Assembly (NCBI GenBank): GCA_024137785.1
Contig: JAHRHZ010000140.1
Location: 26,536,303-26,600,302, forward strand
Source: Ginglymostoma cirratum
Lineage: Eukaryota
DNA length: 64,000 nt
Direction of reading: 5' to 3'
Shown here: one piece after another, positions 5,902 through 62,371 of the stretch
Numbering within the stretch: the stretch's first letter is position 1
Layout: each line of letters starts with the position of its first letter
Notes under the pieces: generated by a model
The model's database searches: none
What the model saw: only the letters and a program-made list of their open reading frames with translations
Told to the model about the DNA's origin: nothing
Translations under genes and position numbers: made by a program

Positions 5902-6130
5902 AAAAACTGAAAGAACTGCAGATGCCGTAAATCAGGAATAAAAATCAGGTAGAAAAACTCAGCAGGTCTGGCAGCATCTGTGAAGAAAAAAATCAGAGCT
6001 AACATTTGGGGTCCAGTGACCCTTCCTCAGAACAGATGAGAAAGGGTCACCAGACTTGAAACGTTAACTGATTTTTCTTCACAAATGCTGCCACACCTGC
6101 TGAGCTTTTCCAGCAACTTCTGTTTTTGTT
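5902..6130. mobile_element. Hammerhead-bearing Penelope-like terminal element, subfamily A, inverted two-arm copy
   Basis: Arms ~5940-6030 and ~6036-6130 are reverse complements, each with a degenerate hammerhead core. Flanking direct repeat CCCAACCAGCAACT at 5888-5901 and 6131-6144. Confidence 0.8.
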
Positions 6131-6400
6131 CCCAACCAGCAACTGTCCAATGTCCTAAAATGTTTTTAATGATCACTATACGTGGAAAATGGCTTGCAAT
6201 GTAACAGTTAGAATACAAATTAAACATTTCTCCCAGAATGTATTGCCAGATGTCACTTATCATAGCAATTCAAATTAATTTGTTTTTTATTGTTAACAAC
6301 TGTTGGAAGTTCTCAGCTGCATAATGAATATGCAACATGATGATTTAATGTTAATGTAACTTAGTCCAAATGTATAATCTCAGACCTAATAAAGGGAGGA

Positions 6401-6507
6401 AGGGTTCTGAGGAAGGGTCACCGGACTCGAAACGTTAACTCTGTTTTCTCCTCCACAGATGCTGCCAGACCTGCTGAGCTTTTCCAGCAACTTTGTTTTT
6501 GTGCCTG
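6401..6507 (+). mobile_element. Hammerhead-bearing element, subfamily A, single arm
   Basis: AGGGTT-CTGAGGA-A-GGGTC-ACCG-GACTC-GAAAC-GTT-AACTCT. Imperfect TSD AAAGGGAGGA (6391-6400) / AAAGGGAAGA (6508-6517). Confidence 0.8.
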
Positions 6508-7379
6508 AAAGGGAAGACTTGGACCACTTCTGTGGGGATACCAAGACATCACTGTCCCACCAACTGAGTAAGTATCACTTTTCTTTCCACTGCAACTCTC
6601 ACATTAATCCCACTGTCAATGTCATTTGCAGCACACCACCTCTAATGACTGTCAGTGATGCCCTCTCTCTCTTCCACCTTACAGGTACCATTGTTCACCA
6701 TCACTGCGGAGAAATGGTCGGATCGCCCTACAGCTTCCTCCTCCATCTTGGGGGCAGAGAACAGAGGCCTAAGAGAAAGCATCAGCCAGACTGTCTCCTG
6801 CACATGCTCAGCGTCAGTCAGGACAGGACCCTGAGGTGTCAACACTGAGGGACAACATCCACATGGACAGGGAGGAACAGGAGCAGCAAACAGTTATATG
6901 GGGTGCAAAAGTCCTTATAGTCCAGAAGCTACAGGCTACGAGGACCCAATTCTCCAGGTTTTTGATGCAGGTGTGAGATTGTGTAGTGCAACACCATACA
7001 GCAAGATGTGCACCCATTGACTGAGGGCTGCTGACTAGCAAGGCAAGAGCCCTGGTTGTTTGATTGAGCTAATAGGCCTGGCCTAATTGCCAGTGCTTCC
7101 TGCAATGCAAGTCTGTGATTCCTAAATGGCCTCTGAGTGGTACCACGATGACTGTGCAGGGCTGATAAATATGGGATACCATTGCTGGTGAAGGAGGAAT
7201 TCATGCTCTGGTGGCCATGTGACCCAAGATGCAGTGTGGTGATGATCAATATGGAGACTCCTCACAGCCAGTAGTGGCTGGTCAGCAAGTTTCCATGTCA
7301 AGATTTTTTAATTTCTAGCTCATTTAGTGTATTTGGTAGCATAAGAATCTGAATATTAAAGAGGTCAATTGTGGCTTAG

Positions 7380-7729
7380 GGAGGCATAGTGGCTGAGTGG
7401 ATAGCATTGCTGTCTCACAGCACGAGGGATCCAAGTTCGATTCCAGCCTCAGGTAATTGTCTGTGTGGAGTTTGTACATTCTCCCCATGTCTGTGTGGGT
7501 TTCCTCCAGGTGCTCTGGTTTCCTCCCACAGTCCAAAGAGTGCAGGTTAGGTGGATTGGCTGTGCTAAATTGCCCAGTGTCCAAGGTGTGCAGTTTGGGT
7601 GGATTGGCCATGGGAATTGAAGGGTTCCAGGGATGGGGTAGAGCTGGGTGGGATGCTCTTCAGAGGGTCAGTGCAGACTCAATGGGTCAAATGGCTTGTT
7701 TCCACACTGGAGGGACTCTATGATTCTAT
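7380..7729 (+). mobile_element. tRNA-derived V-SINE (HE1-like)
   Basis: A box TGGCTGAGTGG, B box GTTCGATTCC, V-domain TGTGTGGAGTTTG...GGGTTTCCTCC...CTCCCACAGTCCAAAG, CR1-like tail ending TCTATGATTCTAT. Confidence 0.88.
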
Positions 7730-8619
7730 CACATTAATAAAGGTGTTTAACAGCAATAATCCATCTTTACTGGCAGCCTGTTACTGCCTAGCAAGAAACA
7801 AGTCTCTCTGTTTGGTAAATATTTAAATGATGTGACAAGTTACTCCCAACATCAACACTGGCCTTGCCACATTTCTTGTTTGGTTCTGTCACACATTTCA
7901 CCGCATCTCACATCACTCAGACCCCTATAAGATTTCACCCTGTACATTACATTTCCAAGTTTCACAAATACCTGTAACTATAGAAGTTCTACTATATGAT
8001 GCCTTAAAGCAAGGAAATTCATTGTAAAATATGCAATAAGGCATGCTGTTGGGGATTACTTAGTTAAGGTTTAAAAATAAATGAATTAAGAAGAGAACAT
8101 AAAAGAGTGAACTTAATTCATCTGCTCACATGATGCTGGGAATTGTAGGCTATTCAGCTTGTTGCTTATTGTTAGGAAAATACACAACAGTAATATAAAG
8201 TATATTATCAGTACTTGTTTAAAGAGCATAAAGCCATAAGAGACAGTTAGCATGTAAAAGCGATAAACCATGCCTCATAAAAATCAATGGAACTCTTGAA
8301 ACGGCAGCTAGTCTACAAAATGGGCATTACCTTGTACATACCTTGAAAAGGCATTGTGATTATGATCTAAATGTGAAGCATTTAAATAAGGTTGAGATCT
8401 ATGCAATAATTGAAGTGAGGTTGATAGCAATTGGTAGCAGGTGATGATAATGAATTGGTAATAGCTGTGTGTAGGGTAGCAACTAAATGTGTCCAACAGA
8501 TTTTCTATGCTCATACGATTTGGATGGGATTTTTTTGTGACTTTCACCATGTGTTCAATTCTCTGTGTCTACATGATGAGATAGCATTAAAAATGTGTGT
8601 GAACATAAAGCAAATAAGT

Positions 8620-9165
8620 TCAGGAACATAGGAATGGGCCATTCAGCCCCTCAAACAATTTATATATTCTTTATAATCATATATATTCTTTATCCCTGAA
8701 AACTATAATACCTTCAATTAAAATCTTCAATTTAAAACTTAACTTATTGTTCTAGCACTGATTGCCATTTGCTGAAGAACTCCCAACCTCTACCAAGGTT
8801 CATGTGCAAGTACATTCTGATTTCATTGCTGATAAGATCAAGCTCCAATTTTTTACAGTATATACCCATTTGCAGATTTCCAAACCAACAGAAATAGTTT
8901 CTTTGTTACCCTTAAAATCTTTAGCAGAATTTGATCAAATCATCCTTTAATTCTGTAAATCCCAAGGAATACGTTTTTATTTTGTGTCTGCTCACATCAT
9001 AAGTTAACCCATGAATTTCAGGTATCATTCTGATTAAATTACACTATACTCCATCCAATGAGTCATTTCTAATGCATGGTGCCTAGAACTGCTCATAATA
9101 TTCCAGATGTGGTAAAACTAGAAACTTGTATAACTGAAGAATGACTTCTACCACCTTGTATATAG
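8620..9165 (-). mobile_element. CR1-type LINE 3' fragment
   Basis: Reverse CR1 tail (GGCCATTCAGCCC) and decayed ORF2 end (CATCTGGAATATTATGAGCAGTTCTAGGCACC on minus). Confidence 0.65.
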
Positions 9166-9169
9166 ACAT

Positions 9170-10745
9170 CAAAGTAGAGGATTGTGAAATTTTATAATAA
9201 ATTATTAGAGAGAGAGAGAGGAACTACTTGCAAGTTTAGCAATCTTAATGATCAATAAATTCACAGGCCCAGATGAAATGTATCCCAGGCTTTTGAGGGA
9301 GGCAAGGGAGGAGATATCAGGGGCTTTAGGGGTAAATTTCTCTGGCCACAGCTAAGAGACCAGAGGGCTGGAGGGTGTTTGTCCCATTATTACAAAAGAG
9401 AGGAAAGCATACACCAGGTAATTAGCCAGTTAGCCTAACCTTAGTGGTATGGAAATTTTCAAAGGGACGGAATGCATCTGCATGTGGAGAGACCTGGATT
9501 GATTAAGAACAGTCAGCATGGACTTGTTAAGTGAAGTTGATGTTTGAAAAATTTGATTAAATTGTTTGAGGAGGCAATGAGGAGCATTTTGATGTGGTTT
9601 ACATGGATCTAAGGAAAGTTTTTGATAAGGTGTAAGACAAGTCAAGAAAATAAGAGCTCATGGGATCCAAGGCAAAGTAGCATACTGGGCTCAAAATTGG
9701 CTGCAAGGCAAGAAACAGAGGGTGATAGTAGTGGGATGGTTCTGTCATTGGCAGTCTGTTTCTGGGGGGTTGGCATTCACAGGGCTTGGTGCTGGGGCTC
9801 TTGCTGTTTGTGGTGCAATAAAATGGATTTAAATGCAATGGTATGATCAAGAAGTTTGTGGGTAATATGAAAATTTGTAGGGTAATAAGTAGTTTGGAAG
9901 GATAGCCGTAAACTGAACGTGTGCATCAATGCATTAGTCAGGTGGGTACAGCAGTGGAAAATGGGAGTCAAACAAGAAAAGTTAGAAGTAATGCACTTGG
10001 GAAGAGCTAACAAAATAAGGGATTACACAATAAATATAGGACTCTGAAAAGTACTGAAATTCAGAGGGAATTTGATGCGCATATGGCACAGATCCCTGAA
10101 GATAGATAGATACGCTGGTTCAAAAGGCATCTGCGATACTTGCCTTTATTAAACAAGGCACAGAATACAAGAACAGGGAGGTTATGTTGAAACCATATAA
10201 AATGATGGTTAGCCAACAACTGCATCCTGTTATGGTCACCACATTATAGGGGGGATGTGACAGAATGAGAGAGAGTGCAGAGGACATTTACTGGGGTGCT
10301 GCATGGGCTGGGGGGTCTGAGATATGAGAAAAAAATTGGATAGGCTGGGGTTATTTTCCTTTGGAAAAAAGAAGGTTGAGAGGGGCTTTGATAGAGGTTT
10401 ATAAGATAATGGGCTGTATAGTGTAGTTAGGAAGGCACGTTCTTCCATTAGAGGGTCAATAATCAGGTGGAATAGATTTAAGATGAGAAGTGGAAGGCTA
10501 AGGAGAGAGCTGAAGAGAAGGTTTTTCACCCCAAGAGTGATAGGAGCTTGGAACTCACTGCCTGAAAGAGTGGTCGAGTCAGAAACCTATGTGACATTTG
10601 ATCAGTATTTAAATAACCACTTGTGTTGTCCTTGCCTCCAAGGTTACGTAGCAAATGCTGGAAAATGGGAATAGTGTAATCAGAGTTTTGTTGATTGGCA
10701 CAGACGCAATAGGCCAAATAGTTTCCTTCTGCGCTCTAGACTGCT
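9170..10745 (+). mobile_element. CR1-type LINE (HER1-like), decayed RT region plus 3' UTR
   Basis: GPDEMYPRLLREAREEI, SQHG-like, and RRFFTPRVIGAWNSLPERVVE motifs; typical tail. Confidence 0.85.
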
Positions 10746-12103
10746 ATGTGTCTAGGAGTATTTGAGAAGTAAATTTAATTTTAAAGTAGGCACATGTGAC
10801 ACAGTGCATTTTGAAATGGCAAACAGGAATTGTATGCACCCACTGAAGGATGGTCCAATGAAAAACAGAAAATGACATGGGTATGATTATTGTCTACTTA
10901 TTGACAGTTAACTGAGTGTTGTTAACAAGATGAATTGAACTTTAGAATTTACCTCCAAGTTATCCCATTTATAAGTTAAAAAGAAATTAATCTAGGGTTT
11001 GTGGAATTCTTTTTGAGATGCCGCATTAAAAATAAAATGTTCATCCACCTCATTTTAATTTGTTATTTCTTCATGGTACAATTAGCATTCCTATTGGGTT
11101 ACATTCAGAAAGCTAGTGGCCCAGGTATATTAGGAGCATAATCAGAGGTACATTTGCTTGTACCTAAACGGGGTTGCACACACACCACCCACTATTCAAA
11201 CGTACACATCCCCACCAAAGGTACTGTAATACTCTAGTGCCTTCAATACATAGACTTCACCATGCGACCTCATTCCAGTTGTAACTGTGCTCTGGTGATG
11301 CCAACTTGTTGTGCAGCACAGAAATAATTTAAAGTTATTGGAAGCTGATGGAGCACGCACAATGTGTCAGACATGCAAACAGTCTAAACAACCCACACAG
11401 CAACGCTAACAATTTATCTTATGGCTGTGTTGATTGATAATGAATTAAGGTGTTAAGGTGTAACTGTAGGCACTTCAGCTAAATGCCATGGATACTTAAA
11501 AATTTCCACTTTCTGTCAGGAATATTGAAAATCAAGTGCTGTGGATTCTTATTTCAATCTACTAAGGACAAGCTAGAAATATAGTAAGAAATCTCAGCTC
11601 CTGTGAAATTATATTTTTAATAAAAATGTTTCATATCAGAAGTATTTGAAATGAACAATAATATTCATTTTGTTCAAAGATTTGTTTGAAACTCTGCTGA
11701 TATTTCACTTCTCTGCTGAATATTTAAATTTTCTATACTGTTTAGATTAACAGCTTGTGGGAAGACATTCGTTTCGTATTAGCTGTGGTAACAGATTTCT
11801 TTTGTCGTTTACTGCACATTCATTAGGTTCACTGTCAGACAACTTACCATTAATTGTTTTTTGAAAAAAATTGAATTTTCATGTATTCCTATGCTAACTA
11901 TTATCGCCCGATGCACTGTTTTCATACATTCTCTTACATGTATACAATTTTTGTACTACATGAAACATTAATGTGATTTTTCTTTCCCCTTTAGTTACCC
12001 CAATTTCCTCATTAGACTCTTTCTCCTTGCTGGATTTGCCTATATACCACTGCCCACAAGATGCAAGTGGAGAAAAACAGTTTAACAGTGAGGGAGAATT
12101 AAT

Positions 12104-12239
12104 CAGCTCTGAAGAGTCATATCGGACTTAAAACGTAACTCTGCTTCTCTCTCCACATATGCTGCCAGACCTGCTGAGTTCCTCCAGTACTTTGTTTTTA
12201 TTTCACATTTTCAGTATCTGCATTATCTTGCTTTCATTA
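12104..12239 (+). mobile_element. Degenerate hammerhead-bearing element (A-like)
   Basis: CTGAAGAGTCATATCGGACTTAAAACGTAACTCTG...GCTGCCAGACCTGCTGAG plus tail. Degenerate flanking repeat TGAGGGAGAATTAAT / TGGGGGAGATTAAT. Confidence 0.65.
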
Positions 12240-12974
12240 TGGGGGAGATTAATGAATTTTTCAGCTTTTGTAGGAACGGAAGCTGATAACTAATAATGGA
12301 ACAGATTAGTCAAAATTAGGTTACTGAGGGAAATTAATTTCAAGTCCGGTCTTCAATATTATTTCTTATTTGTGTAGGCCTCTAAAATGGGATGTCGTAC
12401 CACAGTAACTTAATATAATAGAAAATGTTTATGAGCGTGAAACTAAGAATTTAGGGAATTAGTAGGTATTATAATGTCTTTGAGGGAAAGAGGAATGAAA
12501 GCAAGGTGCAATGATCATGGAACAAATTTCAGAAGATGGGGCAAAATAACCGCTTAACATGTGAGAAATAGTCAACAATTATTTTAACCTTCCAAGATTC
12601 TATGCAAACTCAGACACGTTGGCATAATTAAAATATATTACTATAGTTCAAAAAGTATTGCTGCTGACACACAGCATGTTATGGTGATCGTCTATGAATG
12701 TGTAAGGCATAATTGTAGAAATCACCATCAAATTTCTGAATGTACTCAGATTAATTTCCTCTGCTATTTTAATGGAGGCACTATGCCATTTAAGCTGACA
12801 AACGCTTCTGGTAAATCAACAAAAAAAATTGACATGGATGAAATTTGCACAGCACTAATGGTAATCTAACTTTCAGAAAGGGAAAGTTGCACGACAGCCA
12901 AGTTAGATCTGAATTAGAAAAGCATAATGTTGTGGGCTAATTGATAATTACTATTTCTTTGCTCATTACATTCA

Positions 12975-13304
<330 letters not shown>

Positions 13305-13554
13305 TTATTTTCAATCAGAATTTAGTCAAATACATTATGCAGAATAAGAGACGTGCAGCTCTCATTAACTCCTGATATCCTGAGTGCATATTTTTGCAAA
13401 TACTTGAAACGTACTCCAAGGATTTGGATAAGCTAAATTGTCATTAAACTTCACACATTCCCACATCTTTCTCCCCCCAATTCCTACAACAGAAACAAAT
13501 GTTTGCGCCTTGCCTTTGACTGATTTCATGCATAATTCATTATTAGCACCCTTT

Positions 13555-13975
13555 TTGAGAATAGTTGGATAGGCTGGGCTTGGTTCTGCTGGAGTTTAAA
13601 AGAGTGAGGGGTGATTTGATTGAAGAGTTTCAAATCGTGAATGGTCTTGACAACATGGATGCGGAAAGGACGTATCCTTTTGTGGGCAAGTCCAGAATTA
13701 AGGATTCTGTTTTAAAATTAGGGACTTGCCTTTTAGGACAGAGATAAAGATTTTTTTTGCCTCCAAGGGATTTGTGTGACTTTGAAATTCTCTGTCTCAG
13801 AAAGTGTCAGAGGTGATGTTATTGAATATTTTTAAGGGAGGATAGGTTATTGTTAGGCAAGGGAATTGAAAGTTATTAGGGGAGATGGGAATGTGGAATT
13901 TGGAACACAAACAGATCAGCCATGATCTTATTTAATGTTCAAGCAGGCCTGAAGGGCCAAAGGCTTACTTCTAGT
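13555..13975 (+). mobile_element. CR1-type LINE 3' fragment
   Basis: LDRLGLVLLEFKRVRGDLIE motif and tail GATCAGCCATGATC...GAAGGGCCAAAGGC. Confidence 0.85.
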
Positions 13976-15022: not shown

Positions 15023-15182
15023 GGAAGCTTGACGTTTCGGGCCTAGACCCTTCATCAGAAAATGAAGGGTCTAGGCCCGAAACTTCAAGCTTTCCTGCTC
15101 CTATGATGCTGCTTGGCCTGCTGTGTTCATCCAGCCCCATGCCTTGTTATCTTGGATTCTCCAGCATCTGCAGTACCTTTTA
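15023..15182. mobile_element. Hammerhead-bearing element, subfamily B, short inverted arm plus full arm
   Basis: Minus-strand core CTGATGA-A-GGGT-CTAG-GCCC-GAAAC-GTC at 15031-15058, with an inverted partial copy at ~15062-15093. TSD CCTCTTTAGATGTTG (15008-15022) / CCTCTTAAGATGTTG (15183-15197). Confidence 0.82.
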
Positions 15183-15499
15183 CCTCTTAAGATGTTGCTG
15201 CCTCAGCTCCAAAAGCCTCAAACTGCAGCTGTTGCAGTTACCTTACATGGCTTTGGCCTCTCTGAGAAACCTGGCTGCAGTATGAGGATGAGAAACGCAT
15301 TCCAAGCAAAAACAATAATAAGCAGCAGCTCAGAACATATATTGTAAAATATAAACTATGTTGTATTTTTAGTTAGATTGATTACCTTGTGATATAATCA
15401 AGATATATGAGCTCAGGTAGGTGTGAAATTGAATTTTTAATAAAGCTGGTCAGAAAAACAAACATACACACCATTATAAAGATAAGGTTTTTTGCACGG

Positions 15500-16705
15500 A
15501 TAAAGGCCTTTCAACCCATCATATCTTTGTCAGTCATCAAGCACCTACTTACTTTAGTCCCACCTTTCAGCACTTGACCTGTAACCTGGCATGCTACGGT
15601 GTTTCTAATGTTCATCTAAATACTGTTAAGTGTGATGGTTCCCTCTTCAACAGCCTTTCAGGTTGTGAGTCCCAGATACTCCCCATCACCTGGATGAAAA
15701 TATTCTTCCTTAAATTCCCTCTATACCCCTGATTCTTACCTTAAATCTTTGCTCCTTGGTTATTGATTCCTCGACTAAGAAGAAAGGTTTCTTCTTAACT
15801 ATGTCTCTCATAATTTTGTACACCTTGATCAGATCCCTCCTTTAGCTTTTCTGCTCTAAGGAAAATGACCCCAGCCTGTCTCGACTTTGATCATAGTTCC
15901 AGCCCAGGCAACATGCTGATCAATCTCTTCAGCATCCTCTTCAAGGCAATCACATCCCTCCTATACTGTGGTGAACAGAACCCCATACAGTGCTCCAGCT
16001 ATGGCTTAACTAACATCTTATAAAGGTAAAATCACCATTGTCTTACCAGGCCAGGCAGGGCAGGTCTCTAAATAGACAGAGACAACTGGTGGTGGTTTTA
16101 CCCAAGGGTCTTCACACCTCAAGCAGGGGGAGAGGCTGAGAAGGAGAGTTCTTCATGATAACCTCAGCTGGTGTGGGAATCAAACTCACATTGTTGGTGT
16201 CACTCTGTATCTCAAACTAGCCATACAGGCGAGTGAGCTAACTGCCCCCCACTAATATCTTATACAACTCCATCATATTCCTCCAGCTCTTGCACTCAAT
16301 GTCTTGAATGCAAAAACAAGTATTCTATTTGCCTTCTCAACCACCATAGCCACATATCCATCTATCCTGTTGCTTTCAAGGATCTGTGAACTTGTTTTTT
16401 TTATGAATTCATGGGATGAAGGCATCGCTGGCTAGGCCAGCATTTATTGCTCATCCTTAATTGTGCAGTGAGAGGTTAAGAGTCAACCACATTGCTTTGG
16501 GTCTGGAATCACATATACACAGATGTCTGTATCTCATGTACATCACACCAAGGACCTGCTGTCTATCCTAGGGCCCTGCTATTCATTGTGTGCTCCCTTG
16601 CCTTGATAGCCCTCCCAAAATGCATCATCCTCACACTTGTCCTGATTAAATTCCATTTGTTACTGTTCTGGTCATCTGACCAGCCCATCTACATCATCCT
16701 GTAGA
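15500..16705 (-). mobile_element. CR1-type LINE 3' part with nested SINE insertions
   Basis: Reverse CR1 tail and ORF2 end (CTGGAGCACTGTATGGGGTTCTG on minus), interrupted at 16023-16250 and ~16395-16520. Confidence 0.8.
16023..16250 (-). mobile_element. tRNA-derived SINE nested in CR1
   Basis: Minus-strand A box TAGCTCACTCG and B-box-like GAGTTTGATTCCC. TSD ACTAACATCTTATA (16009-16022) / ACTAATATCTTATA (16251-16264). Confidence 0.75.
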
Positions 16706-17091: not shown

Positions 17092-17186
17092 AAGATAACA
17101 AAGTTTAGAGCTGGATGAACACAGCAGGCCAAGCAGCATCAGAGGAGCAGGAAAGCTGACATTTCGGGCCTAGACCCTTCTTCAGA
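17092..17186 (-). mobile_element. Hammerhead-bearing element, subfamily B, single arm
   Basis: Minus strand reads CTGAAGAAGGGTCTAGGCCCGAAATGTCAGC...CTTTGTTATCT. No clear TSD. Confidence 0.75.
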
Positions 17187-18309
17187 TTCTGTCTAAAACC
17201 AACAAATTGTCATTTTGGCAACTTAACACTGAAGAGCAATAATTGGCTTAAGAATCCATAAAAAGCAGCTGGCATAGAAAATGAAAAACTTCATTGCTGC
17301 AAATGGAAAACTTTTCCAAGGTTTGGTTCAGCACGTATTAAAAAATGGCAAATGCTATGATTTGCCCACAGTAAAGTTACAATAAATGAATCGTTCTTTC
17401 AAGTCGATTTTGAAGTCTATAACTAGAAAATAAGTGGTATTTATTGGTCAGAATTTCATTTATTTTGGAAGCTCTTGCCATTTTACTATTTTGTTCTAAC
17501 AGCAAGAAGGCAAGTAACTCTGCATTTTCATAAGCATTGCACACTAAGGTCAGATGTGTTGCCTCAGTTGCCAATAAAATAATTAAAGAATATAGAAAGT
17601 GAATTATTTTATAAACATATTTGCAATGCTGACATTGGCATGTGCACTCATGGATTTTCACTGCTGATCCATCTGTTTTACATTTACTTAAACTTGCTAC
17701 TGAATTCATTTAACACCGACTCATCTCAGACGAATGAATAATTTTCAGGTCAACCTGCTGAGTGTGTTTTGAATGTGAAAGGAAATTGATTGAATGTAGC
17801 TTGAAATCTAATAGGAGAAATGCCTTAAGATTGACTCAATGAGTAGCCTGTAGTTAGACTGTGTGCTTGGAAGGAGTTTTCTGAATTAAACTATGAAGGT
17901 TTGTCCAAATAAAAAGTGATTGGAGCTGTCTGAGCCATAGGCCCAAAATGGATTTTAAGTTACTGAATACAGATGTCCTACTGATCTGGACCTGTATTTG
18001 CTTCCTCTCTTCACAAAAACCTGAGAAAGCAGGGTATGAATAGATGTATGGACATGACTAGGCACCAGTCCTACATTAATTTTAAAATCACCAGGGATAT
18101 CACGAGAGACTCTTCAGCCCATCACTCAAATCGGTCAATAAGATGGAAACTTCTTTTACAAAAAAGTTATATTTGTGTTTTTTTGACATTAACCTTCCGT
18201 CTTTCATTATTAGACTTCAGGCCTTGATTTTAATTTTAGTCCTATTTGTTTGAGCTGCTTTTGCAATAGGAAGTTTAGGAGTTCTTTACTCTTTTATTAC
18301 TCACTCATT

Positions 18310-18760
18310 AGACCATAAGACATAGGAACAGAAATTTGGCCATTCGGCCCATTGGGTCAGCTCCACCATTCAATCATGGCTGATAAATTTCTCAACCCCG
18401 TTCTCTGCTTTCTCCCCATAACGTTTGATCCCTTGACAGTCAAGGATATGGGAAATGCTGGCTGCCCAGTAATTATTGCCCATTCTTAGTTGCCCAAAAG
18501 AAGGTAGCAGTGAGTATCTGAGAAGTCACAAATGGTGCTGAATATTGTGCAATCATCAGCAGACATCCTCACTTCTGGCCTCATGAGGGAGGGAAGGTCA
18601 TTGGTGAAGCAACTGCAGATGGTTGTGCCTAGGACTCTACTCTGAGGAACTCCTGCAGAGAAGTATTGGAGCTGAGATAATTGACCTCCAATAATCACAA
18701 CATCTTCCCACGTGCCAGGTATGACCCTAACAACTGGAGAGATGTCCCCAACTCTCAATG
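18310..18760 (-). mobile_element. CR1 tail plus fragment of another non-LTR RT
   Basis: CR1 tail at 18310-18445. ORF 18486-18758 carries GVPQ..VLG...NDLP...ADDCT RT motifs. Confidence 0.75.
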
Positions 18761-19810
18761 AAGATTGTCTAGAATATGTAGAAGGCTGTGGAAATTTAGA
18801 ATAGAAAATTTATAACAGAAAGGTAAAGGCTGCAGAAGTTTATGATTAAGTTTATCACCTAGGACAAGTTCTGCTGAGATCAGGGAAGGCAAGATACAAT
18901 CCAGCATGAGGTAATTCAGCATCAGTTAGCAGTCAGTCTAGAACTCACTCAATAGCTCAAGATTCAGGAAGAACAGGAACAGTAGAAGTTCCCAATCATT
19001 CTAATCTCTCAGAGGTCTGTACCATGCTTGAAAAGGAAAGTGAAGGAGCCAGTTCATGATTGCCAGCTCATCAAAATGAAGTTGTACAAATTCTCAAATA
19101 GATAGTAAATAAAAGGACAAAGACTGTATTGCATTCAATAGGTATTTGACAAGTTTGAGAGTCTAAGAACTTTATCTCATCAAATCTCATCAAATTATTT
19201 CAGTCCCAGATATTGGCCTCAACTATAAGTTTATAATGGACGAGCAGTTAATGCTGAGTTACTATGGCATGACTGCCCTTGTAATCTCTGCAGTTTATTT
19301 TGCAATTTACCTCAATGAACTTTGAAAACTCCTTTTAAATGCTCATGACTATGCTAACGTTAATAAATAATTGCTAGTTCATGACCTTCCTGCTTTCTTT
19401 TATAATTGGCAAAGTAGGCTTAATTGATTCACGAAGGAGGTTAAGTTTAGCCTGGTGAGCAGTTGTGGTGTAAATACTAACACAATTTAAATTGGTTTCA
19501 ACATGCCAACTTGAACAAAATTAACTTACAGGCATTGGCATGGTGGTAAACCTCTGCTGATTCTTGAAATTGGGTGGCAACGTGAAGGAGTTAAGAATTT
19601 AACCAGTGCTACTGATGACAATTTGTTGCTGTGTATCAATCCGAGTGTTTTTATTATCCTCGAACATGTAAACTTTCTCCATAAGGCCACTGGCAGAATG
19701 ATCCGATTTAGAAACAGCAATAACTTTGCTTTAATTATTTGTTTTCTTTAGTGTGACATCAAAATCCCAACTTGCTCATTTTATCTCATGCCTCTTATAT
19801 AATACTTTCT

Positions 19811-20145
19811 AGAATCATAGGATCTCTACAATATGGAAGCAGGCCATTCAGCCCACTGAATTCACACTGACCCTCTGAAAAGCATCCCACCCTGTCCCTG
19901 TAACCCTGCATTTCCCGTGGTTAATCCACTTAGCCTGCACATCCCTGGACACTACAGACAATTTAGCACAGCCAATCCACCTAACCTATATATCTTTGGA
20001 CTGTGTGAGGAAACACGAGCATACAGAGGAAGCTCACACAGCCACAGGGAGAATGGGTAAATTCCACACAGACAGTTGCCCAAGGCTGGAATCAAACTCA
20101 GGTGCCTGGTGCTGTGAGGAAGCAGTGCTAACCGTTGAGCCATTG
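19811..20145 (-). mobile_element. V-SINE (HE1-like)
   Basis: Reverse complement of the 7380-7729 family. Confidence 0.87.
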
Positions 20146-20892: not shown

Positions 20893-20907
20893 AACTGTAA
20901 CCAACAG

Positions 20908-21147
20908 AGATAACAAGGTGTAGAGCTGGATGAACACAGCAGGTCAAGCAGCATCAGAGGAGCAGGAAGGCTGACGTTTCAGGCCTAGATCCTTCTTCAG
21001 AAAAATTTTCAGATTTTCTGAAGAAGGAGGTAGGCCCGAAACGTCAGCCTTCCTGCTCCTCTGATACTGCTTGGCCTGCTGTGTTCATCCAGCTCTACAC
21101 CTTGTTACCTCAGATTCTCCAGCATCTGCAATTCCTACTATCTCTGA
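20908..21147. mobile_element. Hammerhead-bearing element, subfamily B, full palindromic copy with tail
   Basis: ~100-bp inverted arms (~20906-21004 and ~21014-21112), each with CTGAAGA...GAAACGTC, then a ~35-nt tail. Perfect 15-bp TSD AACTGTAACCAACAG (20893-20907 / 21148-21162). Confidence 0.88.
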
Positions 21148-22254
21148 AACTGTAACCAACAGTTTGGGATGCAGGCTTCAGGCAAGTTGATAGTTGTCAA
21201 TTGAAAAAATTCCAAGTCTTTCACAATTTGCTTAAATGCAAGTTATCCAAAAGAGTTTTATTTCCCTGAGGGATTTTAATTGGTAATCCAAAGTTTTATT
21301 TAGAGTAGTGATGTATAGCCATGTCTATCATGTCTACTTGCTCCCAAAGTGGCCTGGGCAAGATATATCTTCTGTTGTTGTCTTAATTTTGTACTCTTTT
21401 GCTTAAATGCTCCATCATGACAACTACAGAGTGAAACTGCATCTGTTGATTGAAAGAAATATATGCACTGCTATCGAGTAAGAAATACTCTTGAGGAAAA
21501 CCTTAGGTATAGATTTTCTGACAAGTGACAATACTGCACAGATTGCCACACCAGCCTCTCCTTTTCAGGAAAGAATGGAGCTCTGCAATTTGGACAGGAG
21601 ATTCCACTCTACTCTCAATTAGAAATGCAGAACTGTACTTCCATTCTGACAGTTTTTCCATTGCACAAAACTGTCAGAGGTAGACGAAGCAAACTCCTTT
21701 TTCACAGCAGACAGCTGTTGTATTCTGATATTTAAAGATCCTGACAGCCACTTTGAGAGCTACTGTCAAACCATAAGTAACTGCGAAGATAGGTGCTAGG
21801 TGATAGAAGGACAGGACATCAGGTAAATAGAAGGTCAAGCAGCATAGATACCAGGTAAGTAAGATGCCAAGTGGATAGTATGCCAATTTGGCATGTTGCC
21901 AGCTGGGGTGGGGGAGATGGTGCCAGGGTCCACGATGGCAGGTAAGTGTTTAGGGTCAATTCAAGACAACGATCTGTGGCAAATCTAGGCCACTTGTAGA
22001 CTGAAGAAACTAGTTGTCCTTTCAATCTCAGGGAATTGTGGCTGCTATATATGGAGACAATCTCCTGTTCCTAATCCAGTTTTGTCTTATACTGGGCTTA
22101 TGCCACTGGATCTGTGGGTAGTTGGGATGCAGAGAGTAAAGACTAGCTAATAATAATTAACATCAAATGGTGCTATGCCCAAATTTGCTAGTTTTGTTAC
22201 GTGAAATTGTGTTTGTCTACTGGCAACAAGTGTACACTACGTGTTATAATTATA

Positions 22255-30422: not shown

Positions 30423-30570
30423 ACAACACGGTGTGGAGCTGGAGCAACAGAGCAAGCCAGGCAGCATCAGAGGAGCTAGAAAGTTGATGTTTCAGGTCAG
30501 GACCCTTCTTTAGAACTTCTCCACACTGTGTTGTCTCTAACTCCAGAATCTGTAGTTCTTGCTATCTTTA
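30423..30570. mobile_element. Older subfamily B element with a mostly deleted second arm
   Basis: ACAACACGGTGTGGAG...GCAGCATCAGAGGAG...TTTCAGGTCAGGACCCTTCTTTAG, then CTCCACACTGTGTTGT and the tail. Confidence 0.65.
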
Positions 30571-33212: not shown

Positions 33213-33850
33213 CATTGCTTACTGAGTAGCGCTCATGCCTCTGATTTGCATGGTTCCAGGATCAAGTCCCACTCCAAGGCCTAAGAACCAAAATCAAGGC
33301 TAATACTCTACTACATGGGGTGCGGTCCTTCAGATGAGATACAAAACAAAGGCCCCATCCCCCTGCTTTGATGAATATAAAAGATCCCACAGTACTATTG
33401 TGAAGAGAGTAGAGGTCTATCATCAGCATCAAACACAATAACAAAGTTGCTGGAAAAGCTCAGCAGGTCTGGCAGCATCTGTGAAGGAGAAAACAGAGTT
33501 AACTTTTCGGGTCCAGTGAAAGGAAGGGTCCCCAGGCCAGAAACGTTAACTCTGTTTTTTCCCTCCACAGATGCCGCCAGACCTGCTGAGCTTTTCCAGC
33601 AACTTTGTTGTTGTCCCTGATTTACAGCATCCGCAGTTCTTTTGGTTTCTAACATCAGCATGTTGGTCAGTAGCTACTCTGAAATCATTATCATAAAATT
33701 CAGAACATTATAAAATTGCTTTTAGTGGGAGTTTTCAGTGCATCTAATTGTATGTTCGCTGCATTATAGGAACGACTGCACTTCAAAAGTACTTCATTGT
33801 CTGTAAAGCACTTTGAGATGTCCAGTTATTGTGCAAATATATGCTTTATA
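33213..33850 (+). mobile_element. Deu-domain SINE (SacSINE1/AmnSINE1-like) with L2-like tail
   Basis: tRNA-like head (GGATCAAGTCCC), Deu-like CTTCAGATGAGAT...AAAGATCCCAC...GAAGAG, tail ACTTCAAAAGTACTTCATTG...GTAAAGCACTTTGAGATGTCC. Confidence 0.7.
33430..33647. mobile_element. Subfamily A palindromic element nested in a Deu-SINE
   Basis: Inverted arms with a central deletion removing both CTGA motifs, tail CTGATTTACAGCATCCGCAGTTC. TSD TCTATCATCAGCAT (33416-33429) / TCTAACATCAGCAT (33648-33661). Confidence 0.82.
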
Positions 33851-43744: not shown

Positions 43745-43866
43745 AAACTGAATGAACAGCAGATGCTGTAAATCAGAAACAAAAACAGAAATTGCTGGAA
43801 AAGCTCTGGCAGCACCAGCAGAGAGAAATCAGAGTTTTGGGTCAAGCGACCCTTCCTCAGAGCTCA
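43745..43866 (-). mobile_element. Subfamily A element, single arm with tail and internal deletions
   Basis: Perfect 13-bp TSD AGGTGTCAAGTGA (43732-43744 / 43867-43879). Minus-strand CTGAGGAAGGGTCGCTTGACCC remnant core. Confidence 0.8.
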
Positions 43867-53744: not shown

Positions 53745-53891
<147 letters not shown>

Positions 53892-54109: not shown

Positions 54110-56250
54110 ACCCAGAAACACAAAAAAGAGCAAAAATAGGCCACTTGATCCTTTGAGCTGGCTCTCCTATTCAATATGATTATGGTTGATCATACAGTGA
54201 TCCAAATCCTGTTTCTGCTTTCTTACTATACCCTTTGATCAATTTAGCTTTAAGAACTAGATCTAATACATGTTTGAAAACACTCAATATTTTGGTCTCT
54301 TCCTGTGGCAGTGAATTCTACAGGTTCCGTACTCTCTACATGAAGAATGTTCTCTTCGTCTCAGTCCTAAACGGCCTACCCCATATCCTTAAACAATGAT
54401 TGCTGGTTCTCAACTCCCTAGTCATCAGGAACATCACTCTTGCACTTACCTTGTCTAGGCCTGTTGGACTTTTGTATCCTTATATCAGGTTCCCCCTTCA
54501 TTCTTCTAAATGACAGGCAACTCAAAGGTGTGGGAGGGCCAATTAAATTGCCCAAAGTGTAAGGCAGCTGGCAGACTCATTAATGCTGTGTGCACTAAGG
54601 TCATTGTAGAAAAGGGAGGATGGCACAAAATGGAGAGAACGTTCTGCAGATGGGAGTGCCAGCCAATTCCTCATTCCCACCTGTATCCAGACAATCTGGC
54701 TGTGGATGCCAAACAAACAATTACGAACATTGGAACATATAAATTTTGTCCCTGAGGCCAGCTCCACCATTCAATAAGTAAAAGGTTGATCTGTCATGTA
54801 ATGAATTCCACATTCCCATCTACCTGCAATACACTTTGGTTCCCTTGCCTATCTACTTTCAAAGTGCTTAGAATTATTCAATGAACTCCCCAGACAACCA
54901 GGTCACACAACCCTATCTCATCTATGAGTTCTGAGGAAGGGCCACCGGACCTGAAACATTAACTCTGATTTTTTTCTTCACAGATGCTGCCAGACCTACT
55001 GAGCTTCCAGCAACTTCTGTTTTTGTTCCTACCTCACCTTTGTTGTAAAAGGGTGAATTCTAGTTCTGGATGCACCTACAGTCGGCTAATACTATTCAGG
55101 AGTTTACCAAGTTCTAGCAAGTTGCCCCTCACTCCCCGAGCTCCAGTGGAAGTATTCCCAGTCCGTCCAATATTTCCTCTTAAGATAACCCATTATTCCA
55201 AATATATCTCTAGTAAACCTCCCCTGAACCACCAGAAAATGTGCACAATATTTAAGATGTGGTCTCGTCAATGACTTGCATAACTCAAGTTTAACATCCT
55301 TACTTCTTATGCTCGATTCCTCTCATCATAAAGAATAGTATTCCATGAGCATTCACAACTACTTGCTGTAACATGCATACTAATTTTTAGAGAATAGGGA
55401 GATCCCTTTGTACCTCAGAATTCTGCACTCATTGTCCACCAAAGTAATAGTCTGCTTTTTCATTCATCCTACTAAAGTGAACAACTTTGCATTTTCCACA
55501 CCTTATATTGCATCTGGTAGAGTTTGCCAACTCAGTGAACTTAGCTATATTCATCTACAACATCCTTGTGTCTTTTTCAAGACATGCCTTCTTACCTATT
55601 TTCATTTTATCTGCAAATTTGGCTGCCATGCCTTCACTCCCACATCTAAATGTAAAGCTGAGGCCCTAATGAGCTTCAAGGCCATAAGTTATAGCTGCAG
55701 AATTAGTTCATTTGGCCCATTGAGTCTGCTCCACCATTCAATCGTAGCTGATTTGTTTTTCAACACCGTTCTCCTGATTTCTCCCTGTAACCTTCCTTGC
55801 TAATTAAGACCCTGTCCATTCGAGTCTTAAATACACTTGACCCCTACAAAACTCCATTTGTCACATCCAACCAAGAAAAATAACCATTTATGCACGCTTT
55901 CGGTTTTCTGCTATTTTCTATACATGCTAAAATGTTACTCCATACACCATGAGTTCCTATTTTTCATAATTTTTTTTGCGCCTTGTCAAATGCTTTCTGG
56001 AAATCCAAGTACAGTATGTTTACAAGCTCCCTTTATACATAGCATATGTTACTCCTTCAAAGAACTATAATAAATTGGTTAGACTTGATTTCCCTTTCCT
56101 GACTACCATGAGCTTTTCAATGTACCCAACCATAGCTTCTGTAATGATTGATTTTAACACCATTCCCACAATAGACATCAAGCCAGTTGATCTATACTTT
56201 TCTGCTAATCTCTCTTCCAGAATAGAAGAATTATATTGGGAATTGTTCTA
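54110..56250 (-). mobile_element. Cluster of minus-strand CR1 fragments
   Basis: Three CR1 tails (~54140, ~54730, ~55685) and the reverse DFQKAFDK motif at ~55980-56005. Confidence 0.72.
54924..55027 (+). mobile_element. Subfamily A element, single arm, nested in CR1
   Basis: GAGTT-CTGAGGA-AGGGCCACCGGACCT-GAAAC-ATT-AACTC. Imperfect TSD CCTATCTCATCT (54912-54923) / CCTACCTCACCT (55028-55039). Confidence 0.75.
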
Positions 56251-57118
56251 ATCGCCTGCTTGAAGGTAAATCTATAGTAGACAGTGTGAGGCATTCAAAA
56301 GGGTATTAGGCGTGTATAGGGCTAACATTTCTCCTTTAGCATGAAATGTAGAAGCAACAAACCCGGAGACCAATGGATATCCAGGAATATTCAGGACTGG
56401 ATATGAAGGAAAAGAGAAATGTATAACAGGTACAAAGGGAGCAAAACAATGGCAGCCCCAGAGGAGTATTGAAAGTGCAGGGGGATCTCAAGAAAGCAAT
56501 TCAGAGAGTAAAGAGGGGACATGAGAAAATGCTTACAGGCAAGACTATGGAGAATCCCAGAATATTCTGCATGTATATCAAAGGGAAGAGAGTAACCAAG
56601 GAAAGAGTGGGGCCCAAGAGGGCAATCTGTGCATGAAGTGGAGGACTTTGGCAGAGTGTTAAGTGAATACTTTACATCTGTCTTTACTCAGGAGAAAAAG
56701 GATGCAAATACAGAATTCAAGAAGATGGACTATGAAGTCTTTGAGCAAATCAATATAAGAAGTGAAGCGTAATTGGAGGTTTTGGCAAATTTAAAAGTGA
56801 ACAAATCCACAGATGTGAGTTGTATCCCAAATTTTCAAACCATCCTTGGCCACAGGGGTGATGCCAAAGGACTGGAGGACAGCTAATGTGGTCCCACTTT
56901 ACAAGAAGGGTGGTAGAGATAGGTCAGGGAGCTACGGACCAGTGAGTCTAGCATCAATGGTAAAGACACGACTGGAGAAAATAGTGAAGGAGAAAATTAA
57001 TCTCCATTTATAGAGACAAACTTTGATCAGAGATAATCGGCATGCCCTTGTCAGAGGTAGGTCACACCTAACAAATCTAGTGGAATTTTTCGAGGAGTTG
57101 ACCAAATGTTTAATGAGG

Positions 57119-57217
57119 AACAAAACAAAATTGCTGGAGAAAATCTGCAGGTCTGGCAGCATCTGTGAAGGAAAAAACAGAGTTAACGTTTCGGGTCCGG
57201 TGACCCTTCCTCAGAAC
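57119..57217 (-). mobile_element. Subfamily A element with intact hammerhead core, inserted in a CR1 RT frame
   Basis: Perfect 12-bp TSD TGTTTAATGAGG (57107-57118 / 57218-57229). Interrupts the CR1 RT segment LTNLVEFFEELTKCL...VDEVYVDFSKAF. Confidence 0.9.
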
Positions 57218-57218
57218 T
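57181..57218 (-). ncRNA. Minimal type I hammerhead ribozyme motif
   Basis: AGUU CUGAGGA A GGGUC-ACCG-GACCC GAAAC GUU^AACU. Helix I AGUU/AACU, 5-bp helix II, palindromic ACGU helix III. Activity not demonstrated. Confidence 0.75.
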
Positions 57219-59814
57219 GTTTAATGAGGGTTGGGTTAGTTGATGAAGTTTACGTAGATTTCAGCAAGGCCTTCAACAGGATCCCATGTGAGAAACTGAT
57301 AAAGGAGGTAAAACTTAGTGGGATACACAGTAACTTGACAAATTGGATCCAAAATTAGTTTAGAGACAGGAGGCAGAGAGTGGTGGTAAAAAGCTGTTTG
57401 TGTGACTGGATCCCAGTTTGCAGTTGTGTACCACAGAGATCAGTGTTGGGTCTCTTATTATTTGCATTAATCATAAATGATTTTGATGAGAATGTAGGGT
57501 GTGGGGAGGCTGGTAAGTAATGGTAATGACAGTGAGGAGGAAGGTGATACATTATTGGAAATATAAACAGATTGGTTAGGTGGGCAGAGCAGCGGCAGAT
57601 GGAATTTAACCTTGATAAATGTGAGGGGATGCTCTTTAGACAAAGGAACAAGATAAGGGAGTACTCAATGAATTTCAAAACACTAGGAAGCTCACAGGAC
57701 AGAGGGATCTTAGGGTGCTTGTCCACAGATCACCGGAGCTGGCAAGACAGGTTAATAGGATAGTTAAAAAGGTATACAGGATTTATTAGACATGGCATAG
57801 ATTACAAGAGCAGGGTGATTATTTTGGAGCTTTACATAACTTTGGTTAGGCCACAGGTGGGGTAGTATGTGCAGTTCTGGTCACCACACTATAGGAAGGA
57901 TGTGGAGTGGGTACAAAAGAGATTCACTAGGAGGCTGCCTGGGATGAAGAGGCTGGATCAGCTCAGATTGTTTTCTTTGGAGCAGAGAAGGTTAAGGGGG
58001 TCCTGAGAGAGGTGTATAAGATTATGATGGGCTTGGATGGGGTGAACAGAAAGCAGTTGTTCCCTTTGGTTAAACAGACAATAACAAGGGCATATAATGT
58101 GAATGTGAAAGGCAGGACAGGATGTTAACAGGGGATTTGAGGAAAAACCTTTAAACCCAGTGTGATGGGTGTTGGAATGCACTGCCTGGGAGGGTAATTG
58201 AGGTGGGAAACCTCAGCTGTTAGAAAGCACTTGGACAGGCACCTGAAATGCCATAGCATTCAGGGCTATGAGCCGAGAGCTGGAAAGTGGGAGTAGTGTT
58301 AGTAGTATAGGTAGTTCTCCTATAACTCGATAGTTGCATTCTTACACTGCCTCACACTATAGAAAATCACGCTATAGGGAAATCGCTATAGGAAATTGCT
58401 TCATTAAAAGAAAACCAGGACAAAATACACCTTTTAAAACCATAGTATCATCACACTGGTTTTTGCATCCTGATCACCTAAACCAAGGTCATCTCTAACT
58501 GCTCCACCAATGCCATCCTTACTTAATAGTCCTACCGCTTCACCTTCATATAGCTTTCTATTCTTCTTGAATGTTATTTACCTTTCCACATTTCGGACTG
58601 AATCTTGGTTATCATGCAACCTCAGCCTTATCTCCTTAAGAGTAATCAATTCCCCTCATATTTTTACTCCTCCCATAATATCGATGATATTTTGTTTGTC
58701 TATGTCTGTCTGTGTGTATGTATGGGCACTTAAGAAGATAATCCCAGGTGAAGTGAAGCTTGAGTATCAACATATTTTCCCAAGTGGATTCTGACACCAT
58801 TTACATTGCATCTGCAATACAAACATTTGTCTCAATGGTAACTATCCCACCAAACCCCTACATCCCCAAGAAAGGAGGTTTGGCTACCTGATTCACACGG
58901 TACTAAACATTTTTAACCAATTTTAAAATAGTGGACAATTAAAGAGTCAATGCTGCTTCATACAACATCTATTAACGATATCAAAACTCCTAACTCCAAA
59001 CTACTAAGGAAAATCTTTTGGCAAGCAAAAAGCATTAACCTGAAATTGTACCCTCTGCACAAATTCAAGTCCTTTCATTAAAACAGCAAAGCTGAAATTA
59101 TATTTCACCAAAATTCCTCAGAAGACCTTTAATGGAATTTTGAAGAACCTGTTCACAACTCCTGAACTGCCAGTAAGCCAATAACCCAATCTCACAAAGG
59201 AATTTCAGCTGTGGACTTTTGGATTCCATCTTAAATAGGATCCCTTAAATGTTTCATACTCAAGTTGTTGCTAAATTGAAGAAACTCTATTTTTTTCATC
59301 TAATTTCAACATGCATGTTTGCAAACCTTCCTGTGTTGTGAAATATCCACTACCATACCTCATTTCTAAGGGTGAGTGAAAATAAGCCCTACATTTGGTT
59401 AACTTTATAGTGGTGTTGTTGAGATCCTTACTAAAGCAGAGTCCAAAAACAGGGAGAGTGGGGCAATGTGCAACTAATGTTTAAAAAAGGGAAAAATGAA
59501 ATCACAATCTGCTTAGAAAAACATGGTGAGAATAGAAAACTTGAATTCTTCTGTAACAATTTAAGAAATTAATATGAAATCGACCTGTCATTTTACTAGA
59601 GATATTATTTAATCACGAACTTAGAATTTGATAAACATTTTATATTGCTATCACACAATATAATCTCAAGGCAATGATGAGTTGTCATCCCTTACAATGG
59701 TTCTATCCAACACAAGAGTGTATATTTTGAATTAGTAATTGTGAAGTAAACCTCTGGTAATCAATATAATTTGCTGCTCTTGTGTTTCTGGTATAGTGTA
59801 TTTAACTTATTCAA

Positions 59815-59940
59815 GAATGGTTATGGGGATAAGGCAGGAACAGGATACTGATGTGGATGATCAGCCATGATCATAATGAATGGTGGTGCTGGCTCGAAGG
59901 GCCAAATGGCCTACTCTTGCACCTATTGTCTATTGTCTAT
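59815..59940 (+). mobile_element. CR1 3' tail
   Basis: GGTTATGGGGATAAGGCAGG...GATCAGCCATGATC...GGCTCGAAGGGCCAAATGGCCTACTC. Confidence 0.85.
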
Positions 59941-61530
59941 AATGGAAACTAAAACAAGATCCACTTTTAACATTACTGCGTTTGGTAAATCTTTCATTGC
60001 TTCAAGCTGCTTCAAAAGACTTCAATATATATTACAAATTGCAAAATATGTTGGACACTGTCATTACACCCAACTTTAAGTGAAATTTATTCCACTCAGA
60101 ACTGGTGTTCATTCATGTGTTTTGCAACAACATCTGTTTCAACTTTTTGACAGAATGCAAAGACAAAGAAATATGACATCTTCACAGACTCATTCTCAGT
60201 ACAATGTTTCCAATAAGGATAGGTTAAATGTTATACATATGTCGCTATCAAGATCAGCCCACAATGCATCTGGTAATAATTTTGGGCAGCAAAGTGAAAG
60301 CTACTGCTATGTTCCTGTAAGTTTTCCAGACTTGCCCAAATACTCTTAAGAGGCAATACCATTTCATGGAGAGATCACGTTTTATTTTATTAATGGAATA
60401 ATGAAAATAACCTGTAAATATTTGCATATAAGATTTCATCGACAGATAGTAAATTTGTTTATAGTGGCAAGAGCTCCAAGCAGAGTCACATCTGTGGGTA
60501 AAGATCACTGTCAGCTTGTTCATTGATGACACTGAGAAGGTTCAATCAGTTGCTCTACTTTTCATTTAATATTATCCTTGGTCTGTCAACCTTAAAATAT
60601 GGACTGTAACCTTCTGGTAGAATAAATGTTTCCGGTTTTCAGTGAAACAAAATATAACCTTTTGAATTGCAATAAAAGAAAATACCATTAGTGGAGAGAT
60701 GTCACAGGCTTTACTATATTCATATTATGGTTCATCCTTGCACATAACCTCCCAGTCACATTTATCAGTCAGTACCAGTTTGATGTTTTGCTAACACCAG
60801 GAGCTTACTTCCATTCCTCAGGTAAGACTCAACGCCCAATATCTTCTAATCTATTGAGTCAGCCCCACACTGTTCCCGTGATGCAGGCCCATTTCTGTCC
60901 CAATTTGCTGGGGGCGAAAGGGGAAGAAGACAACTGTGGTTTGTTAAAGAGGCAAAAAGCATTCTGTTTTCATGGAAACAGCATTTCTGCAAATTGTGGA
61001 AAGAAGCTGAAGTGGGCTGGTGCCTTAGGCAGGAAACAAATGGAAAATACTGATAAATGGAATAGGGAGGGGTAGTGAGTTAGGAGAACAAATGGTCTGG
61101 TTGAATCATAGATAAACTCAAATGTTTTTAGATTTCCTTTTTGTGAATAAAATTGATAAATTATAACGGAAGAATCAGAGTGCACAACTTTTAAAGTAAC
61201 ACCTTTAAGGTTTATGGGTAGGACAGTCCTATGCCCCAAAAGTACACTAGACATTGAGAAAGGGCACCATAAGAATGTGGAAAGAGTGTAAGACTAACAT
61301 TTCCTGTCTCTGCCTTTGTGTTGATCTACCTGCCATAACCTGTTACAAATACTGACTTTAAAACTGCCCACCTAGTAAGCTCCAATTGTTAGGTAAAATT
61401 ATGAAATTAAAGTTTATTAATGAAATTGATTGATATATTTTGGAAAATGTAGGATCCTTTCATCTGAATGAATGTGATAAATGCAGACAAGGTAGGACTG
61501 ATAAGTGACAAGTAACACACACCCTAGACC

Positions 61531-61838
61531 TAGAATCCCTACAGTATGAAAACAGGCCCTTCAGACCAACAAGTCCACACCAACCCTCAGAGCATCCCAC
61601 CCAGACCATCCCCCTATAACCCACCTAATCTACACATCCCTGAACACTATGGGCAATTTAGCATGGCCAATCCACCTAGCCTGCACATCTTTGGATTGTG
61701 GGAGGAAACCAGTGAACCCAGAGGAAACCCACACAGACACAAGGAGAATGTGCAAACTCCACACAGACATGTGTGGATGGAATCAAAACCAGGTCCCTGG
61801 CACTGTGAGGTAGCAGTGTTAACCACTGAGCCACCATG
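61531..61838 (-). mobile_element. V-SINE (HE1-like)
   Basis: Reverse complement of the 7380-7729 family. Confidence 0.87.
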
Positions 61839-62251
61839 ACAGGTGAACAATCATTTCTAGCAAGAGAGAATCTAACCACTGTCCCTCAACATTGACCAGC
61901 ATTGCCTCCACTGAATCCCTCACTATCAGCATCCTGGGGGTTACCATTGACTAGAAACTGAACTGGATCAACCGTATAAATACTACTTATCTGGCTACAA
62001 GAGCAGGTCAGAAGCTAGGCATTCTGTAGTGAATAATTCACCTCCTGTCTCCTGAAAAGGACAGGTAATACAAGTTAAAATTAATCCCTATAATTAGTAA
62101 ATGGCCTTTATTCTTCAAAGCAAAATTACCTTTTTTAAGTAAGCACTTCAGGATTTATATCTTTCAATATATTTAAAATAAATTAACAGAAATACTTGAA
62201 GCACATGGGATGCTTTTCAGGGCCTGATGGCTCTGGAAGTCATGTTTCTTT

Positions 62252-62371
62252 AAGGTGTGGAGCTGAGTGAACACAGCAGGACAGGCAGCATGATAGTGCC
62301 TGACCTGCTGTGTTCATCCAGCTCAACACCTTGTTATCTCAGACTCCAGCATTAACAGTTCCTACTATCTC
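62252..62371. mobile_element. Subfamily B palindrome with the ribozyme cores deleted
   Basis: AAGGTGTGGAGCTGAGTGAACACAGCAGG...CCTGCTGTGTTCATCCAGCTCAACACCTT followed by the B-type tail CTCCAGCATTAACAGTTCCTACTATCTC. Confidence 0.72.

Follow-up and report, generated by a model that had tools for sequence, protein, structure and literature searches.

Endonuclease-positive Penelope-like elements (PLEs) of the Neptune type have just one open reading frame (ORF) for a reverse transcriptase (RT) with a C-terminal GIY-YIG endonuclease (EN), a Cys-rich linker and pseudo-long terminal repeats (pseudo-LTRs or pLTRs), and they show frequent 5' truncation, an adjacent inverted copy, a tail of 30-40 bp and target duplications (PMC8557442, PMC3846280). 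The minimal hammerhead ribozymes of metazoan PLEs lack a helix III stem and have a palindromic 15.2-16.2 segment, an extra base between positions 9 and 10.1, a G10.1-C11.1 pair and a short helix I; they are mostly solo copies, and opposite-strand pairs occur (Cervera and De la Pena, 2014; PMC4209133). A PLE expansion has been reported in the whale shark (10.1101/443036). The traits listed for the Neptune-type elements and for the metazoan hammerheads are also those of a set of dispersed repeats of 100-240 bp in the shark Ginglymostoma cirratum, which we analyzed in a stretch of 64,000 nucleotides (assembly GCA_024137785.1, contig JAHRHZ010000140.1, positions 26,536,303 to 26,600,302 of the forward strand), called the window throughout.

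A sequence-only reading of the window had described the repeats as an ORF-less, PLE-derived system of 12 hammerhead-carrying copies in two subfamilies, A and B. Here we report that the repeats are almost certainly the terminal module of PLEs, composed of the minimal hammerhead, a body and an optional tail, and that two autonomous RT + GIY-YIG families, of which full-length copies exist, have A and B as their terminal repeats. The best explanation of the whole, to which we assign a probability of roughly 0.7, combines the terminal module of these two families with internal priming near the 5' end of the element RNA and run-off.

Parent elements of the terminal modules

A genome search for GIY-YIG sequences gave 12 loci, all 12 with a same-strand B unit downstream. 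The distance from the GIY-YIG piece to this unit was about 345-390 bp in 11 loci, and the remaining locus was rearranged. Locus L053 is a full element, consisting of an inverted piece, a 5' repeat with hammerhead, the RT-EN coding region and a 3' repeat. For family A, a search with an A-linked protein piece returned ten loci, one of them the query locus, and nine of the ten carry a same-strand A unit. In all 16 longer A loci the A unit lies downstream of the EN-coding piece, in L251 on the inverted arm only, and L261 and L256 are continuous from the hammerhead into the ORF. Among the first 30 exact-core copies of each family (L073 and L233 were reclassed as long by eye), 21 B and 6 A copies extend upstream into element sequence, and the upstream sequence common to the six A copies encodes a related EN. 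Over 514 amino acids, the frames of A and B share 62% identity. In two long frames Pfam recognized GIY-YIG above the cut-off and RVT_1 below it, and among named proteins those of carpet sharks come closest (72-90% identity). Pseudo-LTRs, or a partial tandem, with an adjacent inverted 5'-truncated copy are present in L053, L040, L041, L046, L256, and L261. A CX2-5CxxC linker between RT and EN and a CCHH motif in the EN were found in P0001 and in the L251 frame. The Cys-rich linker is a trait of Neptune and Nematis (PMC8557442), and both shark families are probably Neptune-type, a clade placement made from the linker motif only.

The PLE origin that had been proposed for the repeats is thereby borne out, with longer copies joined to an RT + GIY-YIG ORF in both families. 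The idea of a separate ORF-less system is not supported, as both subfamilies are ends of autonomous elements, many copies extend into element sequence, and the window contains no tandem arrays. No PLE protein remnant was detected in the window itself by tblastn. In the 4.36 Gb genome, exact hammerhead cores number 2021 for A and 19583 for B, and a reversed-pattern control gave 0. Outside the window, 44 insertions were counted in 35 heavily masked stretches, which is one per 4.8 kb of the 210.7 kb of unmasked sequence on which the density was computed; the high copy number of about one per 5 kb noted earlier is therefore not confined to the window. By rough extrapolation, the genome holds about 0.9 million insertions.

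In L053:2915-3000 and L261:3960-4055 (approximate positions), an ATG within a GATGCTGC motif opens a frame of 28-30 codons. This frame stops at or just past the tail, upstream of the MPTLKK start common to both families; it is possibly an upstream ORF, and it is lost in some variants. At L061:1415 and in L220, A and B elements are inserted beside or into one another's terminal repeats.

5' ends of the short copies

In up to 300 nt upstream of the unit, there is just one recurrent TATA-like hexamer; among long copies, 30 of 44 in family A have it at -29 and 80 of 89 in family B at -31. Short copies do not have the box. By eye, a similar motif near -30 was also seen in three long third-family copies, in which the script found no recurrent hexamer. 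For both families, we take the A at +1, the first base of helix I, to have initiator-like surroundings. Within the samples of 30 exact-core copies, 5' ends fall within -3..+3 of the helix I start in 24 A and 9 B copies. Ends at four positions were compared by matched searches for a non-template base preceding a 27-mer, and were counted by hand. Among the first 100 matches of each search, true ends numbered 85 at +1 (1831 matches), 22 at +48 (1336 matches), 18 at -62 (184 matches) and 55 at the ribozyme cut site (1519 matches), 10 of these 55 being palindromic fold-backs. The odds ratios for end enrichment versus controls are 20 and 26 at +1 and 3.5-4.3 at the cut site, with the denominator at +48 inflated by a substitution variant; by estimated counts, cut-site ends are about 2.3-2.8 times those at +48. 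Of the six copies that join the hammerhead to the ORF start, two are tandem and four have their first base at +1..+3, and the 5' edge therefore belongs to ORF-containing templates too. Most repeats begin at the first ribozyme base, about 30 bases behind the TATA-like box, likely because the element RNA starts there. Most short copies are probably run-off cDNAs that reach the 5' end of a transcript predicted to begin at the first hammerhead base.

The base that precedes the copies points in the same direction. In family B, a G precedes 49 of 85 ends at +1 versus 20 of 95 at the three other sites (+48, -62, and the cut site), and after removal of 16 rows with CTG re-priming it precedes 33 of 69 ends at +1 (p = 4e-4). 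In family A, it precedes 45 of 97 ends at +1. The enrichment in B is the one expected from copying of the cap. In L117, L125, L129, L159, and L160, the 5' junction carries a second copy of the unit's first 3-7 bases, as would result from re-priming by the RT at the template end.

A fixed edge could also belong to an independent non-autonomous family, similar to a short interspersed element (SINE) or a retrozyme, that is copied from short masters with PLE proteins. Non-autonomous PLE derivatives have been described (PMC8557442; preprint 10.64898/2026.07.22.740005), and 80% of the intact-core A copies are short with the fixed 5' edge. This origin is nevertheless unlikely, since the short copies do not have the TATA-like box, ORF-containing copies have the same 5' edge, body variants look common to short and long copies (by eye only), and no tandem arrays of the unit were found in the window. 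It is also improbable that the short copies are plain 5'-truncated products of the 3' repeat, with the RT stalling or the cDNA folding back after helix I and the pile-up reflecting structure. The pile-up does match the helix boundary, the joint of some inverted arms lies at or close to the 3' strand of helix I, and microhomology is used at many junctions. However, stalling leaves unexplained both the TATA spacing in two to three families and the G enrichment at +1 but not at the control sites. Moreover, helix I has only about 4 bp, folding of four units gave z values of -0.66 to +0.35 versus shuffles and thus no extra stability, and many junctions are simple rather than fold-backs.

Several observations weigh against a transcript start at helix I. 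When the CTG rows are left out of the A sample, a G precedes 26 of 78 ends, which is not significant (p = 0.09). Of the simple copies whose target duplication is resolved, 8 from B and 16 from A, none has a lone-G linker, and the extra G can stem from microhomology in inverted arms. Neither in an unstranded polyA run nor in a second run of raw reads did molecule starts or ends pile up. Across 23 distinct hammerheads in 80 metagenome relatives, one family only has TATAAA at a comparable spacing (6 matches). The end counts were made by hand on the first 100 matches listed, drawn from the first contigs. Finally, transcription of the Penelope element of D. virilis begins not at helix I but 46 nt ahead of an intron, the end of which abuts helix I (PMC2377424, PMC4209133).

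For the shark families we also considered, and rejected, a D. virilis-like intron with its end at helix I: in two sets of 100 rows each, no shared leader exon precedes the short copies, and B has no AG there. In the RNA data, 73% of the reads continue into unlike sequence. Loose read ends at 2899 are due to a one-base variant and not to cleavage. In one family of the metagenome relatives (L290, L295, L305, L310, and L311), TATAAA lies 37-38 nt before the core (in L290 also 39), a spacing like that of the shark families.

The 3' ends form two classes. Out of 69 arms, 32 end at +90-109, 30 at +120-139 and 7 elsewhere. In vitro, two internal RT start sites define the tail of the Anolis Poseidon element PAc, for which uncleaved RNA is the main template (Frangieh et al., 2024; PMC11167929). 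Head-to-head units might come from self-priming with antisense RNA as the template, an idea put forward for rotifer Penelope elements (PMC3846280), and palindromic junctions are common in the shark copies. We regard this origin as very unlikely here: the 3' ends fit two internal priming sites on a sense template (PMC11167929), and the promoter-like motifs are on the sense strand.

With a run-off origin, transcription from the terminal repeat would start at helix I, and the endonuclease of the ribonucleoprotein would nick the target, the nick then priming cDNA, as demonstrated in vitro for the lizard element PAc (PMC11167929), at either of two internal sites, here about +100 or +135. RT primed at these 5'-proximal sites would run off the capped end and give module-only inserts, while priming within the 3' repeat would give long, variably truncated copies. 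Re-priming or fold-back at the RNA end may add short duplications or inverted arms before the insert is sealed. As template, full-length RNA may serve, or ORF-less RNA transcribed from any truncated copy that retains the TATA box; ORF-less long copies with this box could act as templates in trans, which is the part of the earlier ORF-less idea that may still hold. The ribozyme would be mostly uncut in the template, and a minority of templates may be cut. Short copies would be dead on arrival, because they are without the TATA-like box, and would decay neutrally. The chances seem evenly balanced that the promoter start makes the ribozyme cap-proximal, that its cut would decap the RNA, that module-only inserts number about a million, and that cut-site ends without the extra G record cleavage in vivo.

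Hammerhead fold and the loci of the window

All 12 loci of the sequence-only reading were found at the positions given, which are left edges, with the hammerhead on the + or the - strand. BLAST searches with natural copies resolved them into 17 arms. The core sequences, body motif and optional tail of about 35 nt described for A and B were recovered, the tail being visible in the 3' end classes. The division into two subfamilies does not extend to the loci at 12104 and 30423, which are older related families outside A and B. The hammerhead core of the shared layout is missing at 62252, and 43745 lacks the GAAAC-GTT part. A strict minimal-hammerhead descriptor was passed by 3 of the 17 arms (6407+, 15058-, 57214-) and failed by the other 14; 100 dinucleotide shuffles of the window gave a mean of 0.0 passes. 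No hammerhead family of Rfam matched the window at E<=5, and the Rfam scan gave just weak microRNA-like matches, due to palindromes. The minimal type-I hammerhead with ACGU palindrome is supported directly by the intact arms and by the genome-wide cores, in which the core nucleotides, the extra base after A9, G10.1-C11.1, the palindromic 15.2-16.2 and the short helix I are all present. Covariation in helix II, which had been named as a further check, was found between families, where A pairs with U in 37 of 38 third-family rows with a 5-6 nt loop, but not within A, where 57 of 62 G>A rows were left uncompensated (hand count, first 100 rows). This is the pattern expected if the parents are under selection and the copies decay neutrally. 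Loci of the third PLE family with the A-U pair in helix II are L266, L267, L270, and L274-L277. In all aligned families a motif of the body and part of the tail are complementary (alignment A1 columns 58-64 / 115-121); the alignment shows no compensatory change, and the predicted body-tail helix is not claimed.

Head-to-head inverted pairs, absent from the earlier description, occur at 5 of the 12 loci (5902, 15023, 20908, 33430, and 62252), and the other 7 loci are single-armed. Their arms are unable to form a hammerhead dimer because they lie on opposite strands; a full-length RNA would hold two same-strand hammerheads able to dimerize. Target duplications of 13-15 bp with at most one mismatch were found at 6 of the 12 loci, and 1 of 300 random flank pairs reached 13 bp. 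Among the fetched copies, many have target duplications of 8-17 bp and in many others none was detected. The near-palindromic form of five loci flanked by target duplications is reminiscent of miniature inverted-repeat transposable elements of DNA transposons, in which case the likeness to hammerheads would be incidental. Arm length and junction vary from copy to copy, as do the target duplications (8-17 bp), most loci of the window have one arm only, and RT-EN ORFs adjoin the unit without a break; this reading has next to no probability, and we regard it as ruled out by the RT-EN link.

The inverted pair at 5902 consists of a left family A arm with tail (5902..6033, -) and a right one without tail (6037..6131, +), both with decayed cores, and has a 14-bp target duplication (5888-5901 / 6131-6144). 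The pair at 15023, with a 15-bp target duplication with one mismatch, joins a short family B arm with an intact minimal hammerhead (15023..15062, -; core start 15058) to a B arm with tail in which a few 5' bases are missing (15062..15187, +). At 20908, two arms of a B variant, without tail (20908..21004, -) and with tail (21014..21147, +), are enclosed by an exact 15-bp target duplication (20893-20907 / 21148-21162). The pair at 33430 has a family A arm that starts within helix II (33435..33519, -), a family A arm with tail that misses the 5' part of the core (33521..33651, +) and a 14-bp target duplication with one mismatch. At 62252..62371, two B-variant arms made up of body and tail (about 62252-62290, -, and 62291-62371, +) form an inverted pair without hammerhead core.

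Intact minimal hammerheads are also present in two single family A units without tail, at 6404..6506 (+; core start 6407) and at 57119..57218 (-; core start 57214), the latter with an exact target duplication of 12 bp. A third A unit without tail (54927..55030, +) begins at the first helix I base and has a decayed core, and an A-like unit with tail (43745..43864, -) has lost the 3' half of the core and has an exact 13-bp target duplication. An older variant of family B without tail lies at 17092..17186 (-). The unit of the third, older related family (12105..12235, +) has the A-U pair in helix II, a decayed core and a tail. The older B-related unit at 30423..30515 (-), also with a decayed core, is followed by a short inverted tail piece (about 30517-30570, +; by eye).

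Other repeats are found in the window as well. A repeat of about 330 bp with a tRNA-like head is present in three copies (7385-7728, 19810-20142, and 61531-61838), and resembles the shark HE1-type SINE. No tRNA genes were found in the window. Dispersed repeats resembling 3' fragments of long interspersed elements lie at 10145-10489, 15733-16013, and 57782-58027, and further ones at 18309-18425, 54130-54221, 55679-55794, and 59820-59939. The insert at 57119 presumably lies within an RT-like fragment, judged by motif.

Comparison with known elements

As a class the shark elements are ordinary: the minimal hammerhead, the optional 30-40 nt tail and the inverted arm are already published PLE features (PMC4209133, PMC8557442, PMC11167929). 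They differ from the known Neptune-type PLEs in that module-only copies occur at about one per 4.8 kb and have 5' ends fixed at the hammerhead edge. In its accessible parts, PMC4209133 names no sharks and does not propose a start site at helix I. A literature search, subscription papers and supplements aside, returned nothing on shark PLE hammerheads or on such a start site. The possible weight of the shark families is mechanistic. PLE promoters have been mapped for very few elements; the very large genomic sample yields a precise, testable prediction of the start site and may hold a trace of cleavage in vivo. Run-off would be a simple explanation for the great abundance of solo minimal hammerheads in animal genomes.

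The 3' end classes correspond to the tail pattern of Poseidon PAc (PMC11167929), whose accessible text does not discuss run-off copies. Poseidon PAc belongs to another clade and its ORF begins inside the hammerhead, whereas in the shark elements the short body frame ends before the likely main start. Non-LTR retrozymes (10.64898/2026.07.22.740005) share with the shark units a type I hammerhead and an origin from PLE pLTRs, and include one chondrichthyan. However, retrozymes are defined as tandem repeats, and the shark units are dispersed monomers or head-to-head pairs; a search limited to the window found no head-to-tail tandems of at least two ORF-less hammerhead units. In the Penelope element of D. 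virilis (PMC2377424) and in A. vaga (pLTR; PMC3846280), transcription starts inside the pLTR, as predicted here, and TATA and initiator-like motifs were noted in the pLTR of one rotifer family (PMC3846280). Unlike in D. virilis and A. vaga, the predicted +1 of the shark elements coincides with the first base of the hammerhead, and neither a leader exon nor an intron was seen. This predicted placement of the start site, with 5' ends at helix I behind a TATA-like box, is what the shark families add to the known features of PLEs.

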